Shown here: in pieces, positions 22,359-58,548 of the stretch | Position numbering within the stretch: position 1 is the stretch's first letter | How the letters are laid out: every line of letters begins with the position of its first letter | DNA from: an uncultured delta proteobacterium | GTDB taxonomy: Bacteria; Myxococcota_A; Polyangia; Palsa-1104 | Direction: 5' to 3' | Length of the DNA stretch: 64,000 bases | Assembly: GCA_963785725.1 (NCBI GenBank) | Contig: CAWAWS010000016.1 | Coordinates: forward strand, 160,001-224,000 | Notes under the pieces: model-generated | Told to the model about the DNA's origin: nothing | The model's database searches: none | Seen by the model: only the letters and a program-made list of their open reading frames with translations | Program-made: the position numbers and the translations under genes

Positions 22359-23240
22359 ATGGCGAATCCGGACGACCGAACGAGCGCGCCGTTGCCGCAA
22401 AATGGAAGCGCGCGTGCGTCGCTGAGCGACGAGAGTTCCACACGCGATCGCGACACCGTCGCCGATCGCGTCATCGGCTTCTTACGGCGCGACAATCCGC
22501 TGTCGCGGCGTGCGAAAGCGATCGTCAAGCAGCTGATGCGCGCGGAGTTGCCGGTGACGCCGCTGCACCGCGCCCTCGCCGCCGAGCGCTTCTGGCGGCG
22601 CATGCTGGTGCGTCACGTCGTGCGCGCGGCGTATGACCAGCCGATCCTGCGCACGATGTGCAAGTCGGTCGGCCGCGACTTCCTGCTCGATCCAGGCACG
22701 GGGATCCCCGTCATTTATGGGCTCGACGTGCACCTCGGCGACGGCGTTCACCTCTCGGGCCGGGCCACCTACGCGGGCGCCAGCCGCAACGACGGCCGCC
22801 GCCCGCGCCTCGTCGTCGGCGACCAGACCTACTTGGGCCATCGGCTCATCATCAGCTGCGACGACGAAGTGCGCATCGGCAGCCACGTCCACCTCGCCGA
22901 CGACGTCTACATTTGCGGCTACGACGGCCATCCGCGCGATCCGATCGCGCGCCGCAGCCAGCCCGGCCCGGTCGACTACAGCGGCCGGAGCCGCATCGTG
23001 CTCGAGGATGACGTCTGGATCGGTCAGGGCGTCATGATCTTGAAGGGCGTGCGCATCGGCGCCGGCGCCATCGTGGCCGCGCACGCCGTCGTCACCAAGG
23101 ACGTGACCGCGGGCGCCATCGTCGCCGGTAATCCCGCCAAAGCGGTCGGCCGAGTCGACGGCGGCGCGGTCGACGCGCTCGGATCGGTCGCCGCCGAAGC
23201 CGTCACTGCCGCCACGCCGCGCGAACGCTCGCTCGCCTGA
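22359..23240 (+). CDS. Hexapeptide-repeat (left-handed beta-helix) acyltransferase
   Basis: [37 protein letters not shown]...GNPAK. Confidence 0.88.
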
Positions 23241-53045: not shown

Positions 53046-54836
53046 ATGCAAATTCGCGATCGACCCAAGGCCGGAGCGTGGTTGGGCTTCGCCTTGAGTG
53101 TCCTGTTCGCGTCGGTGCTGGTCCCGCTGACCACGTTCGAGCTGTGGCAGGACCGCGCCGTCGACGCCGCCGGCCGCGCCGTCTTCACGGTGCGCTTGCC
53201 GGAGATGGGCGTCTGGCGCGACACGCTCGTCGGCAGCCGCTTCGAGCATCGGCGCGTGCTCGTGCCGCGCGGCGAATTGGTGGACGCGGCCGAGCGGCGG
53301 CTCATCAACGCCTACGAAATCGGGCGCCGGCCGCCGTCGCTGGGCCTGCTGCTCGGTCTGGCGATCGCCTACTTCATGCTGGGCATGCTGCTCACGTCGT
53401 ATCTGCGCAACTTCGGTTATCGCGGACGACGATTACGCACGCAGATCGTCATGCTCGCCTGTCTCGTCGCCGCGGCGGCGATCTACAAGGCGTACCTGCT
53501 GCTGACGCCCTACCCCGCCTATTGGCTGCCGATTGGCGCGTTCTCGATCGCGGTCGCCGTTCATCATGACCGGCAGGTCGCCTTCGCGGGCACCGTGGCT
53601 TTGTCGTTCCTGGTCGGCTCGCTCATCCCGTTCGATCTCGGTCTGGCGCTGGTGCTACTGCTGCAAGGCTTTGGCGCCATCATGTTCTTGAGCCACCCGC
53701 GGCGTTGGTGGGGCTTGGTGACGGCCGGGCTCGGCGGCGGCATGCTGGCTGCGCTCGGCTACCTCGCGCTCTACTGCCTCGTGCGCGGCCGCCTGCCTGA
53801 CGAGGACACGGCGTCGCTGATGACGTCGGGCTTGGCCGGCGCGTTCGGCGGCGGCGTCGCGGCGGGCCTGCTCGCCATCGTCGTCGCGCCGCTGCTCGAG
53901 CGCGCGCTCGGCGAGGTCTCGCGCACGACGCTGCTCGAGCTGACCGATCTGAATCACCCGCTGCTCAAGCGCATCGCCACGGCCTCGCCGGGAACGTGGG
54001 CGCACTCGCTGGCGATGGCGAACATGGCCGAGCTCGCCGCCACGGCGATCGGCGCCAATGCGCTGCTGACCCGCGTCGGCGCCTACTTTCACGATCTCGG
54101 CAAGTCGTCGGCGCCGCAGTATTACATCGAGAACTTGCACGCCGGCGAGCCCTCGCCGCACGACGCGCTCGATCCCGACGTCTCGGCCGACGCCATCTTC
54201 GCCCACTGTACCGAGGGTGTGCGGCTCGGACGCGGCGCGGGAATTCCCGAGCCGGTGCTCGACTTCATGCACATGCATCACGGCAACGGGCTGCTCGAGT
54301 ACTTCTGGCACAAGAATCAGGAGCTGGGGAACCCGAAGCGCCTGTCGGAGAAGGCGTTCCGCTATCCGGGCCTGCCGCCGCAGACGAAAGAGACGGCGAT
54401 TTTGGCGATCTGCGACGCGGTCGAAGCGGCCTCGCGCACGCTCAAGCAGCCGGCGGAGCGCGATCTGACGAACCTCGTGCAGCGCATCGTGTTCGGAAAG
54501 CTGCGCTTGGGTCAGCTCGATCAGTCGGGGCTGACGTCGGCCGACCTGAAGGCGCTGTGCAACTCGCTCGTCGACACGCTGAAGAACTCGTTCCACGTGC
54601 GCATCGAGTATCCGTGGCAGAAGGAAGAGCGCGCGGCGCAGGCCGCCGAAGCGGCCGCGCAAGCCGCCGCCGCGCCTGCCGAGGCCGGCGGACAAGCGGA
54701 TGCGACGGCGCACCCGAGCGTCGAAGCGCCCGGGCCGACCATCACGCAGCGGCTGTTCGTCGAAGAGCGGCTGGACTCGGCCGATTCACCGCGGCCGAAT
54801 CCCGAAGCCAAAGCTGCGAAGACTAAAGTTTCGTAA
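53046..54836 (+). CDS. 7TM-HD (HDIG) phosphohydrolase, PgpH-like
   Basis: Multiple TM helices; LLELTDLNHPLL, PGTWAHS, YFHDLGK, HHG, FRYPG..PQTKE, DAVEAASR. Confidence 0.88.
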   Translation: MQIRDRPKAGAWLGFALSVLFASVLVPLTTFELWQDRAVDAAGRAVFTVRLPEMGVWRDTLVGSRFEHRRVLVPRGELVDAAERRLINAYEIGRRPPSLGLLLGLAIAYFMLGMLLTSYLRNFGYRGRRLRTQIVMLACLVAAAAIYKAYLLLTPYPAYWLPIGAFSIAVAVHHDRQVAFAGTVALSFLVGSLIPFDLGLALVLLLQGFGAIMFLSHPRRWWGLVTAGLGGGMLAALGYLALYCLVRGRLPDEDTASLMTSGLAGAFGGGVAAGLLAIVVAPLLERALGEVSRTTLLELTDLNHPLLKRIATASPGTWAHSLAMANMAELAATAIGANALLTRVGAYFHDLGKSSAPQYYIENLHAGEPSPHDALDPDVSADAIFAHCTEGVRLGRGAGIPEPVLDFMHMHHGNGLLEYFWHKNQELGNPKRLSEKAFRYPGLPPQTKETAILAICDAVEAASRTLKQPAERDLTNLVQRIVFGKLRLGQLDQSGLTSADLKALCNSLVDTLKNSFHVRIEYPWQKEERAAQAAEAAAQAAAAPAEAGGQADATAHPSVEAPGPTITQRLFVEERLDSADSPRPNPEAKAAKTKVS

Positions 54837-55107
54837 AGCCGGCGCCGCCGAGCTTGTGGCGCGACTCGGCGCCGCCGAACTTGAAGCCGACGACCTGATC
54901 GGCGCTGAAGTAATAGCGCTCGCCCTTGTGGGTCAAGAACACGACTTCGCTGCCGATCTCGATGCGCGAGATGCGCGCGATCTGCAGCGTCTCTTGGCCG
55001 AGCGAGATGTAGGCGTTGGCCTCGACCTCCTCGGGAAACACGTAGCCGTTGCCGTCCTTCTTCACCATCGGGGCGGTCGTCAGGACTTTTTCGATCGATA
55101 GCGCCAT
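54823..55107 (-). CDS. Hypothetical 94-aa protein
   Basis: Clean ORF ending GAGF; TATTGT 6 nt upstream of ATG. Confidence 0.7.
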   Translation of the reverse strand: MALSIEKVLTTAPMVKKDGNGYVFPEEVEANAYISLGQETLQIARISRIEIGSEVVFLTHKGERYYFSADQVVGFKFGGAESRHKLGGAGFTKL

Positions 55108-55465
55108 GGGGCGACAATAAGGCGGAACCCAGCGCGCGTCCAGCAGCCGCGCACGCCCGCGATTGGCGCGTATTTACGGATACGAATCGCGCCAACCGAC
55201 GTCCGGCGCTACTTTGCATGTGTCGTTCGCAGAAGTTCGCTCGACACGCGAGCTAGCCGAGCTGAATCGCGCTCAGCCGCATGGGACGGCAACTTGCGCG
55301 ATCGGGGCCGATCGAGCGCGTGGCCCAGCGCGTTGCAACGGACGGATATCCCCAGGGTGTGAATTCCCGTGGGAAACTTTTTCATCATCGCAGTGACCCG
55401 ATCGAGGCGCGCGAAATCGTTGGCGACGGCGGTCAGTTCACAGTTGTGGACAGCCTGTGCGGCGC

Positions 55466-55494
55466 TTGCGTCGGCGGAGGCGCGGTCCTACTCT
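55466..55494 (+). promoter_or_regulatory. Sigma70-type promoter for the putative ncRNA
   Basis: TTGCGT (55466-55471), 17-nt spacer, TACTCT (55489-55494); predicted start near 55501. Confidence 0.6.
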
Positions 55495-55500
55495 CATCGA

Positions 55501-56102
55501 GTCGGGCGGTACGACGACGAGCCAAGAACCTCGCAGGGGGATCTCGACCTCGGAAGAGGACGAGACTGTCGGCGGCGAAGCAGACTCTGGAGCGCAGGAC
55601 GCGGGCGACTTTGGCCGCCGGCCTCGAAAGCGCACGAGAGGTGACGCCCAAAAGCGTCCATCGCCACCGGTCGGCAATCCCTCAGGGAGGACACGGCGAC
55701 GGCAGCGGGCCGGCAATCTAAACCGTCGCAGGCAGCGCAGCGTTGACGCAACATCCCACGCACCACGCTGAAAATGCGTGGGGGCGCGGTGGTGGGAAAC
55801 CTCAGGAGAGGCGCCCGTGGAGGCGGGCAAGGCGGCTCGGCAAGGACCCTGAAGGAGGCTGCAACCGCAAGAGAGGATCGCCGACTGGTCAAACGGTCGG
55901 ACGAGGGACGACGAGGGAACACCGCGAAGCGTGGGACGATGTCCGAGCGCATGGCGGGAGCGGCGAAAACCTGAGCCGCTACTTCACGTCCCGATAAGAC
56001 TCTGCAGCGGGCGGTAACTTCACGAGGGGCGCGGCGGCTCACGAGCGATCGGGAGCGCCGGCCGAGTACGCTGAAGTCTCTGGAGAGGCGGCTCGTCGTC
56101 GT
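55501..56102 (+). ncRNA. Candidate large (~600 nt) structured non-coding RNA of unknown family
   Basis: Perfect 13-bp closing helix 55511-55523/56090-56102, ten or more internal helices with purine-rich loops, upstream promoter, no credible ORF. Confidence 0.65.
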
Positions 56103-56136
56103 GGCGCGCCGGCGTATGCCGGCGTAGACTGCGGGC

Positions 56137-58548
56137 GTGAAGCGCTTGGGCCTCGTCGCTGCGCTGTCGCTGTCCGCACTCTTGTCGCGACGCGCGTCGA
56201 CGGCCGAGCTCTTCTCGAGCCTGGACGCGCTGGCCGGGCAGCTCAAGAACGGCGACTCGGTGCAGCGGCGCGAAGCGGTCGACAAGCTCGACGCCTATGG
56301 TGCCGACGATGCGCGACCGCTCCTCTTGCGCGCGCTCGGCGACAGCGACACCGACGTGCGGGTGCACGCGGCCACGGCCATTGGGCGGCACCATGTCGCC
56401 GAGGCCACGGCCGGGTTGACGGCGGCGCTGGGCGACTCCGATTCGCGCTTGCGGACGAGCGCGGCGGAGGCGCTGGGCCTCGTGCTCGAAGGGCCGGCCG
56501 CGGGCGATCCGCCGGCGACGACCTTGCGCGCGGTCGATGCGCTCGAGCGCGCGCTCGGCGACGGTGAGCACGAGGTGCGCGAGGCCGCGGTGGGCGCGCT
56601 CGGGCGCTTGCCGGCGACGATGGGACGCCGCGCCGCGGTGGCGTTGACCGGTCGGCTCGACGACGAAGCCGCCGGCGTGCGCCAGCGCGCGGCCGAAGTC
56701 TTGGGCCGCATGGGCGAGACGCGCGCGACGGTGCCGCTGTTGGCGCGGCTCGGCGATCCGACGCGTGAGGTGCGCGCGGCGGCGCTCGAGGCGCTGGCGC
56801 TGCTCGGCGATCCGCACGCGGTGCCGGCGATGGTGCGCATGCTGCGCGATCCGGCCGACGACGTGCGCGCGACGGCGGTGACGGCGCTCGGTCGGCTGCG
56901 CGCAGCGACGGCGATTGGGCCGCTCGACGAGACGATGCTGCACGGCCAGCCCGACGCCCTGCGCGTGCGTGCGGCCTATGCGCTCGGTCAAATCGCCAGC
57001 GCTGGCGCCCGCAGCGACAACGCCAGCGCCAACGGTGTCACGGCGGTCGACGCGCTCTTGAGCGCGCTCGGACGCGATGAGCTGAGCGCGGCGGCGAGCG
57101 AAGCCTTGGTGCGCGCCGGCGGCGCGGCGGTTCCGGCGCTGCTGGCGCGGCTGCCCGAGGCGTCGAACGAGCGCGCGACACTGTATCTCGACCTGCTGCG
57201 CCAAATCGGCGACACGCGCGCGACGCCGGCCCTGCTCGACGAATTGGGCCGTGGCCGCATCGGCGAGGAGCCGATCGTCGACGCCTTGGGCGCCATGTTG
57301 CACGCCGGTGACAAGCGGCCGCTCGTCGAGCTGGTGGCGCGGCTGGGTTCGTCGTCACCGTCGCTCAGGCGGCATGCGGCGCTGGCGTTGCAAGGTGTCG
57401 TCGACACGCGGGCGACGGCGGCGTTGACGGCGGCGGCCAGCGACACGGAAGCGCCGGTGCGCCTCATGGCCATCGGCGAGCTCGGTCGGCTCGGCGCGCG
57501 CGACGCCTTGGCGACGCTGGCGCGCGTGCTCGCCAGCGGCGACGACGAGACCGCCGCGGCCGCCGCGCACGCGCTCGGCCAGCTCGACGATCGGCGCGCG
57601 ACCGCCCCGCTCGTCGCCGCGCTCGGCCGACCGGAGCGACGGGTGCGGCGAGAGGCGGCCGACGCGCTGGCGCACCTCGGTGACGCGTCGGTCGCGCCCG
57701 CGATCATGCGCGCCGTGCGCTCGAGCGCGCCCGATTGTCGCGCCGGCGCCATCGTCGCGCTCGGCGGCGTGCTGCGCCATCACAGCGACAGCTCGGCGCG
57801 CGAGCTGCTGCTCGGTTACGCCGAGGGCAGCGACGCCGCGGCGGCGTTGGCCGCCATCGACGCGCTCGGCGCGATGGGCGACGCGACCGCCGCGCCGCGC
57901 CTCGTGCACCTCGTCGACGGTCGCGCCGACACGGGCTTGCGGCAGCGCGCGCTGGCGGCCCTCGGCAACCTCGACAGCGACGACGCCACGCGCACGCTCG
58001 CCGCGATCCTTGCCGCCGACGTCGATCCCCGCCTGCGCGCCGAGGCCGCTTGGGCGCTCGGCAAACGCGCGCGCGCCGCCGCGACGACAACGCCGCTCTT
58101 GACCGCGGCGCTGCAGTCGCCGACGCCGGCCGTGCGCGCGAACGCGGCCGCCGCGCTCTATCGGCTGCAGCGCGCGCCCGGCCTGCTTACGCGCCTCATC
58201 GACGATCGGGATCCGGCCGTGCGTGGCAACGCGGCGCTGGCGCTCGCGCACACGCCGGCTGCGCATGCCGCGCTGGCGCGTCTGGCCGCTGAGGACGACG
58301 ATCGACTGACCCGCGCGGCCGCCAAATCGGCCCTGCAAGCGCATTCACCGGTGACAGGTAACGACTGGATCGCGCTCGATGTCGTCGACTTCGACGGCTC
58401 GCCCTTGAGCGACGCGCGTTACCGCTTGGCGCTGCCCGATGGTCTCGTCAAAGTGGGCGTGACCGATGAACGCGGCGTCGTGACCGAGGAAGCGCTGCCG
58501 ACCGGCGGCTGCGCGCTCGTGCTCGACGAAGCCGCGGCCGCGCGCTAG
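56137..58548 (+). CDS. Exported HEAT-repeat protein with C-terminal beta-sandwich
   Basis: Signal peptide; many L..AL.D....VR..AA.ALG repeats; C-terminal DFDGSPLSDARYRL.LPDG...GVTDERG. Confidence 0.88.
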   Translation: MKRLGLVAALSLSALLSRRASTAELFSSLDALAGQLKNGDSVQRREAVDKLDAYGADDARPLLLRALGDSDTDVRVHAATAIGRHHVAEATAGLTAALGDSDSRLRTSAAEALGLVLEGPAAGDPPATTLRAVDALERALGDGEHEVREAAVGALGRLPATMGRRAAVALTGRLDDEAAGVRQRAAEVLGRMGETRATVPLLARLGDPTREVRAAALEALALLGDPHAVPAMVRMLRDPADDVRATAVTALGRLRAATAIGPLDETMLHGQPDALRVRAAYALGQIASAGARSDNASANGVTAVDALLSALGRDELSAAASEALVRAGGAAVPALLARLPEASNERATLYLDLLRQIGDTRATPALLDELGRGRIGEEPIVDALGAMLHAGDKRPLVELVARLGSSSPSLRRHAALALQGVVDTRATAALTAAASDTEAPVRLMAIGELGRLGARDALATLARVLASGDDETAAAAAHALGQLDDRRATAPLVAALGRPERRVRREAADALAHLGDASVAPAIMRAVRSSAPDCRAGAIVALGGVLRHHSDSSARELLLGYAEGSDAAAALAAIDALGAMGDATAAPRLVHLVDGRADTGLRQRALAALGNLDSDDATRTLAAILAADVDPRLRAEAAWALGKRARAAATTTPLLTAALQSPTPAVRANAAAALYRLQRAPGLLTRLIDDRDPAVRGNAALALAHTPAAHAALARLAAEDDDRLTRAAAKSALQAHSPVTGNDWIALDVVDFDGSPLSDARYRLALPDGLVKVGVTDERGVVTEEALPTGGCALVLDEAAAAR

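Follow-up and report, generated by a model that had tools for sequence, protein, structure and literature searches.

The question raised by this locus is what occupies positions 55108-56136 of the window (the whole stretch of 64,000 nucleotides analyzed here), the interval between a 94-aa gene on the minus strand and a HEAT-repeat gene. The initial annotation had placed there a large structured ncRNA, possibly of a new myxobacterial class, and covariation, discrete RNA-seq contigs and the lack of Rfam matches support that proposal. We find a stand-alone RNA gene of 613 nt coding for no protein, located at 55501-56113 on the plus strand and closed by a 22-bp helix (P1). What had to be corrected in the earlier account is the start of the RNA, now placed at about 55501, its defining repeated module, which had been missed, and its standing within the family, since the window copy is a shortened form, other members being mostly 0.85-1.2 kb. 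The elements of the locus are as follows.

54823-55107, minus strand: divergent 94-aa gene, found in the same divergent arrangement in G043, G049 and G110
55262-55276, no strand: imperfect palindrome, a probable regulator site, conserved in the genus, with one exact-type copy and one weak look-alike in the genome
55445-55450, plus strand: hexamer that we take to be DnaA-box-like; one or more occur in 22 of 35 members, and congeners have 3-4 within 350 nt
55466-55494, plus strand: predicted sigma70-type promoter (TTG-, 17 nt, TAnnnT) with start at 55501; pattern in 19 of 35 members
55501-56113, plus strand: ncRNA, predicted primary transcript, with conserved limits in 10 genomic homologues, RNA contigs covering 55512/3 to 56111 and a 153-pair structure
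56125-56130, plus strand: -10-like box of the HEAT gene, ending 6 nt before the HEAT start at 56137 (GTG)

When 61 genomes were searched at the DNA level, all four congeners proved to have the RNA in full length, at 74-76% identity. Nine more loci came from a metagenome pattern scan (two of which score the same as G004), and conservation among near homologues spans 55501 to 56113. In the source genome, G000, a 263-aa ORF crosses the element on the minus strand, the same frame being broken in homologues; moreover, 311 of the 327 pairwise indels among near homologues break the frame, not being multiples of 3, and no frame is open throughout. A conserved open frame, looked for in the homologues as the test of a protein-coding gene, was not found, in agreement with the earlier statement that the region holds no credible ORF. 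A MITE with terminal inverted repeats was ruled out, because the element is single-copy in G000 and syntenic and its P1 varies by U-G swaps. A genus-specific insertion, suggested by BLAST (matches in the genus only) and by the first profile (5 of 42 order genomes), was overturned by wider profiles.

Folding against shuffles, a check that the initial annotation had called for, gave a z-score of -5.07 for the plus strand of the element (20 shuffles); with 100 shuffles, the MFE of -308.6 compares with a shuffle mean of -269.8 and a best shuffle of -293.0. Since the reverse strand folds nearly as well (z-score -4.84), the z-score cannot fix the strand, which was assigned from the promoter, the U-G/U-A swaps and the GNRA loops. 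The comparative structure of 153 pairs (-308.0) is 0.6 kcal/mol dearer than the MFE fold, that is, about equally stable, and the MFE fold displays one of the six 3x3 loops of the window copy. Across 11 short-form sequences, a set from which L147 was excluded because its insertions mis-align, these 153 pairs are 98.8% paired, with 22 compensatory pairs vs 8.1 in shuffles (none of 500 reaching the observed value) and at most 5 in slid controls. The purine-rich character remarked upon earlier is genuine, only 73 of 14,484 genome windows being equally skewed, and as few as 35 of these windows have as many GGA triplets as the element, which has 20. Within the comparative structure P1 encloses four domains.

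55501-55523, plus strand: 5' strand of P1, pairing with 56090-56113 (22 pairs, all of them 100% paired; U-A/U-G swaps and one compensatory pair)
56090-56113, plus strand: 3' strand of P1, partner of 55501-55523
55529-55690, plus strand: Domain 1, with modules a and b and two capping hairpins
55533-35 / 55684-86, plus strand: loops of module a, Domain 1
55589-91 / 55634-36, plus strand: loops of module b, Domain 1
55542-65 and 55641-59, plus strand: capping hairpins of Domain 1, from homologue comparison
55713-55729, plus strand: Domain 2 hairpin with a conserved 7-nt CUAA-type loop at 55718-24; paired fraction 0.8 in alignments
55763-55781, plus strand: Domain 3 hairpin with a T-loop-like UGAAA+2 loop at 55769-75; 95.5% paired
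55800-56088, plus strand: Domain 4, the family-wide conserved 3' arm, with modules c-f, an AACC-loop hairpin and a GNRA hairpin
55804-06 / 56082-84, plus strand: loops of module c, Domain 4
55851-53 / 56022-24, plus strand: loops of module d, Domain 4
55869-71 / 56004-06, plus strand: loops of module e, Domain 4
55926-28 / 55951-53, plus strand: loops of module f, Domain 4
55959-80, plus strand: AACC-loop hairpin, Domain 4
56042-51, plus strand: GNRA hairpin, Domain 4

The hallmark of the RNA is a module of helix, 3x3 loop (G-N-A opposite A-N-G) and helix, present in six copies in the window RNA. Each module has two pseudo-symmetric strands that run from an A-rich linker through four pyrimidines and three loop bases to four purines; in the loop G lies opposite G and A opposite A, and the A·A position switches jointly to G·G in several members. 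In the literature searched we found no description of an internal loop that recurs in this way and covaries from A·A to G·G. Arms are strings of modules capped by GNRA and T-loop-like hairpins, and whole arms come and go between members (511-1183 nt) with the module retained: L153 (511 nt) is without two modules, long relatives (~1.1 kb) have up to about ten, and long forms bear extra arms, often with a pair of T-loop-like hairpins side by side (some 17 of 40 members, counted by eye; the window copy has one). RNA contigs carry G at 55715, which completes the stem of the Domain 2 hairpin, and the Domain 3 loop would adopt a T-loop-like fold, judging from its sequence and from the definition of T-loops in the available text of PMC4810234.

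Comparison of 26 sequences from several orders and classes extends this evidence to distant relatives. The 34 chosen pairs of the 3' arm are 91.0% paired vs 73.9% when shuffled, including one hairpin that the aligner mis-registered (70% paired); 26 of the 34 are compensatory, with both partners changed. For covariation the set scores 0.509 vs 0.200 in shuffled sequences, with slid controls not exceeding 0.144. An alignment-blind pattern search recovers exactly six nested modules in the window copy (mean 1.58 and maximum 5 in 200 shuffles), and in the same search, partly circular because the pattern was derived from sequences of this family, 31 of 40 members beat all their own shuffles and nine do not. 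A non-nested covarying helix (pseudoknot or kissing loop), sought in a small sequence-only alignment of 23 long forms, was not found; the first scan was noisy, and after filtering only nested helices remained.

Measured by the fraction of cells paired over 11 homologues, five of the eleven helices listed in the initial annotation hold. These are the closing helix, which is longer than had been claimed (55501-55523 with 56090-56113; 1.00), and those at 55542-65 (0.93), 55643-58 (1.00), 55881-900 (0.99) and 55959-80 (0.97). The other six are wrong: 55570/55614 (0.70), 55678-88 (0.68), 55696/55723 (0.64), 55755/55775 (0.80) and 55933/55987 (0.64) fail, and 55997/56069 is 0.93 paired but has uncompensated breaks, its strands belonging to two other helices that covary across orders. 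The original observation stands for the promoter hexamers, the closing helix and the better-than-shuffle folding, and falls for about half of the internal helices, while the conservation and covariation that it had proposed to look for in relatives are found in near and distant homologues alike.

Metatranscriptome contigs show the RNA as a discrete unit. Of the 22 runs listed, 20, all of them metatranscriptomes from soil, roots or litter that may come from few campaigns, contain 30-48% of the sampled words; some are of just 24-62 Mb. When contigs of four soil or plant metatranscriptomes were aligned to 54500-57000, those of all four were confined to the element, within 55512-56111: one covers exactly 55512-56111 (599 nt, 7 differing letters), another 55512-56087, and those of two further runs start at 55513; the sequence abutting 55512 is presumably adapter. 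No contig lies over 54500-55511 and the HEAT gene is covered by short loose-ended pieces only (four runs), which is weak evidence concerning the neighbour genes because the runs were picked for containing the RNA. At the other end contigs reach 56111-56114, and in two assembled contigs, which we read as cDNA chimeras, a fragment of rRNA or RNase P is fused to the RNA at its 5' boundary in the other contigs (55512-55513), the RNA then running to its 3' end. A discrete unit of the ~600-nt size anticipated by the initial annotation is present in contigs that show neither strand nor level and begin 11 nt inside the predicted start at 55501. This offset may be due to library truncation or processing; a 5' loss of 11 nt would fit ordinary second-strand cDNA truncation.

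The hexamers of the TTGCGT-17-TACTCT promoter described earlier are present, -35- and -10-like, at 55466 and 55489 with a 17-nt spacer. A consensus promoter scan returned no sites, the hexamers lying below threshold, so that the promoter call rests on the conserved pattern and not on consensus strength. Upstream of 35 members we recognize what we take to be sigma70-type (19) or sigma54-type (14) patterns, never both, and a presumed boxA-like motif in six; DnaA-box-like hexamers number 53 vs 2.5 expected, in a set whose kin are not independent. An oriC was ruled out, as dnaA and canonical boxes sit on contig C19. Sigma54-type members (e.g. L271, L272, L279-L283) have in common a CACAG-rich block about 130-250 nt upstream, likely an enhancer-binding site. 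The HEAT gene has its own -10 box at 56125, as previously noted, and appears from its sequence to be leaderless; the box is kept where HEAT follows the RNA, lost in G001, L149 and L153, and also found in G010, where no RNA precedes HEAT. The RNA does stand alone, HEAT not being downstream of it in G001, L153 and most distant members, and a riboswitch or 5' UTR of HEAT was rejected because downstream genes vary, a U-run lies within 75 nt 3' of the element in 24 of 38 members (the window copy being without one) and RNA contigs end at 56111.

A 1.1-kb member diverges from the same small gene in G043, G049 and G110, which belong to three other families, with HEAT downstream in two; the G049 member opens with the same 14 letters as the window RNA. 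The small gene and HEAT abut, with no RNA between them, in three further genera of the home family. When 38 3' arms are placed in a tree, one branch (support 92/85, not starred) separates the members at this locus from those of sigma54 type. Given the shared locus in other families and this tree, the window copy would most simply be a shortened orthologue of the long RNA at the same locus. The 94-aa protein matches nothing in PDB, Pfam or NCBIfam and only hypothetical Myxococcota clusters in Atlas, and we suspect that its C-terminal half resembles an Sm/Hfq-type barrel. Present in 51 of 151 class genomes, it is not co-distributed with the RNA: the protein occurs with no RNA match in f3 (11/11) and f12 (16/17), and f8 has the RNA in 5/6 and the protein in 0/6. 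Flanking genes are diverse, the 78 ORFs scanned including one integrase-family ORF (in G001) and none of the RT, transposase and HNH families sought; nor was a tRNA gene found near 46 member loci. In G001 (L002:2271-3551) that ORF comes right after the RNA and HEAT is displaced, and the RNA 3' end may be an integration site. G004 (L004:2642-3139) has an extra ORF upstream of the promoter. A tRNA-Tyr gene lies at 22926-23012 of the window (minus strand).

Profile searches (E up to 0.001) find the family in 28 of 151 class genomes and 25 of 151 phylum genomes, earlier rounds having given 9/151 for the class, then 13/42 for the order and 14/151 for the phylum. The profiles were sequence-only, built on the 3' arm and rebuilt twice; the counts take in G000 and model-building sequences, about 45 matches were inspected, and misses are not absences, since the large searches scored only 11 candidates per genome. 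On inspection or rescoring, seven weak profile matches (L144, L250, L251, L264-L266, L285) were set aside as chance, and 4 of 19 loci from a genome-wide pattern scan proved real, all in near relatives. Presence is nearly all-or-none by family (f47 8/10, f8 5/6, f37 3/3; f18 and f22 likewise have the RNA), the profile search finding none in f3 (0/23), f4 (0/18), f12 (0/17), f13 (0/17) and f36 (0/13); in such families the RNA is either dispensable or too diverged. There were no matches in 151 genomes of another phylum (that of G303) or in five unrelated genomes, sets without an internal positive control, and none by BLAST in phage and plasmid records; among six viral pattern scans, four gave nothing and two gave chance loci only (100 and 70).

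The 40 delimited members measure 203-1183 nt, 29 of them exceeding 800 nt; typical size is 0.5-1.2 kb, with up to six members per genome. A second paralogue of ~950 nt accompanies the RNA in each of G001-G004, six copies are found in G180 and one was seen in G000. G010 has tandem paralogues 1.7 kb apart with a GNAT gene between them (L322, C93 38264-40291), and the long identical 5' part common to both copies in G078 (L333/L334) suggests recent duplication or conversion. L278 (G017:C435) is an internally deleted member of 203 nt that retains a sigma54-type promoter, both ends and a terminator-like hairpin, and is either a natural mini-form or an assembly collapse. L260/L323 (G282:C4, about 197270-198500) has an insertion of ~1.2 kb in the hairpin after module c, possibly giving an RNA of >2 kb or an interrupted gene.

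Rfam 15, which the initial annotation had recommended searching, returned nothing meaningful for the element at E up to 10 and no relevant match for 27 sources spanning the diversity of the family, and core motifs of RNase P and introns were not found in the window copy, where such hallmarks and those of tmRNA had indeed been reported missing. The element does not match RF00010 and conserved-region motifs of RNase P (CR I, IV and V) occur in none of 40 members; the true RNase P RNA is at G000:C7 (295.9 bits). ARAGORN found no tmRNA in the window; G002-G004 carry this RNA plus a separate tmRNA, and none was over cut-off in G000 or found in G001, probably because of incomplete assembly. The 6S (RF00013) and SRP (RF00169) RNAs are located elsewhere in G000 and the element matches neither. 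There was no match to the Rfam covariance models of ROOL, GOLLD and OLE, nor to those of group I and group II introns and HEARO. Group I R/S and group II 5' motifs occur in 0/40 members, and a loose group II D5 pattern in 7/40, the window copy not among them; early group I P/Q/R/S-like resemblances were explained by module pairings. CsrC matches in L248 were far below cut-off. The literature searched, in its available text, yielded no description of such an RNA, and the available main text of PMC5737381 has no match for myxobacterial terms. On the literature covered, we consider the family very probably undescribed; it is apparently a new class of large bacterial RNA.

The locus thus encodes a conserved, discrete, non-coding and modular RNA in which one closing helix carries several arms. 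As to its action, we give an even chance to the joint reading that this is a stable structural RNA, chromosomal and transcribed on its own, that it belongs to a Myxococcota family not previously described, and that it works as a structural or multivalent-binding scaffold. Its modules would be repeated docking sites, into which linker adenines, GNRA loops and T-loops would pack to form a compact or self-oligomerising particle, and/or every module would take up a single copy of some partner in the cell. The RNA would then be a multivalent scaffold or sink that acts by shape and valency and not by target base-pairing or catalysis, and its dose would be governed by promoters that differ between copies, of sigma70 type with DnaA-box-like sites here and of sigma54 type in paralogues. 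This scaffold reading draws on near and distant covariation, the recovered modules, arms gained or lost with the module kept, discrete contigs, varied neighbours, paralogues and the precedent of ROOL and GOLLD, which the available text of PMC12286853 describes as RNA-only assemblies held by A-minor and loop contacts. Against it count the lack of covariation for pseudoknots and kissing loops in the long forms, both of which ROOL and GOLLD cages use, the single 3x3 loop in the MFE fold, the families without the RNA, L153 with its two missing modules, the 203-nt remnant in G017 and the nine members not beating their shuffles.

A dedicated protein-sequestering RNA following the logic of CsrB or 6S, with each module binding one regulator that the RNA titrates, would also account for the way identical sites recur, for variable copy number, for paralogues with promoters of different types and for abundant GGA triplets. 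We regard it as unlikely, because the CsrA family (PF02599) was not found in G000 (88% complete), the triplets lie mostly in helices and internal loops instead of hairpin loops, 6S RNA is encoded elsewhere and the adjacent 94-aa protein is not co-distributed. Improbable, too, is an RNA that binds tRNA or ribosomes, with paired T-loops as an elbow-binding platform and transcription in the manner of an rRNA operon. It would fit the adjacent hairpins, one with a UGAAA-type and one with a UGNGAAA-type loop, of ~17/40 members, the presumed boxA-like motif (6/35) and the presumed DnaA-box-like hexamers (22/35), and RNase P, T-boxes and 23S rRNA all bind tRNA through interdigitated T-loops (PMC4810234, available text); but the window copy keeps one such loop, no tRNA gene was found near 46 loci and RNase P conserved-region motifs are absent from the 40 members. 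We are equally doubtful of a ribozyme, domesticated intron or mobile RNA remnant with a processing site at 55512. Contigs of four runs, the adapter junction and the two chimeric contigs do all start at 55512-55513, 11 nt inside the predicted start, and the RNA is multi-copy in some genomes; yet it has no group I or II Rfam match or hallmark, is intergenic with its own promoter pattern and often a terminator, keeps its locus across four families, has an uncut opposite 3' strand (contigs reaching 56111-56114), and its 11-nt loss would fit ordinary cDNA truncation. That it is a diverged member of a described class (OLE, ROOL, GOLLD, raiA, MISL or another published motif) of the same size has just as small a chance, considering the Rfam 15 result for the 27 sources, the phage searches, the lack of nearby tRNA genes and the literature searched.

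Large ornate bacterial RNAs are, to our knowledge, few, most known ones being ribozymes or parts of core machines, so that any new class may bring new biochemistry. The boldest form of the scaffold reading, to which we give slightly less than an even chance, is that of a new giant RNA class (up to 1.2 kb, and in G282 perhaps more than 2 kb) forming a natural repeat polymer of one 3x3-loop module, which would self-assemble or multivalently organise some component of the cell in uncultured myxobacteria, and possibly in cultured ones too, while different sigma factors would switch its paralogues; if true, it would be the RNA counterpart of repeat proteins. The family covers several classes of a major soil phylum and appears in small soil metatranscriptomes, its 613-nt window copy and the 511-nt form at L153 provide natural minimal versions of a size that suits probing and cryo-EM, and its all-or-none pattern by family opens a partner search by phylogenetic profiling.

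Among known systems, class A RNase P has a similarly long closing P1, GNRA loops, T-loop-like elements and variable peripheral helices, but the true RNase P is on contig C7 and its conserved-region motifs are absent from the family. CsrB/RsmZ sponge RNAs, which have repeated binding sites and are purine- and GGA-rich, resemble the window RNA in both respects, whereas its sites are internal loops in long helices, it is far larger and more paired, and G000 has no CsrA match. OLE is likewise about 600 nt, chromosomal and an abundant multistem RNA, and scaffolds proteins (PMC12990946 and PMC12286853, available text); it differs in that the present family belongs to another phylum, has no Rfam match and no fixed neighbour gene, varies two-fold in length and has paralogues. 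ROOL and GOLLD reside in phages or prophages, often near tRNA islands, whereas this family is chromosomal, has no Rfam match, was not found in phage and plasmid searches, lacks tRNA genes near the 46 loci and is built of a repeated 3x3 module, with no pseudoknot signal in 23 long forms. Nevertheless, as far as the available text of PMC12286853 goes, ROOL and GOLLD share with it a large size (600 to over 800 nt), an ornate and stand-alone character of unknown function and A-rich linkers with GNRA loops suited to A-minor packing, and GOLLD shares, in addition, the combination of a conserved 3' region with a variable 5' region.
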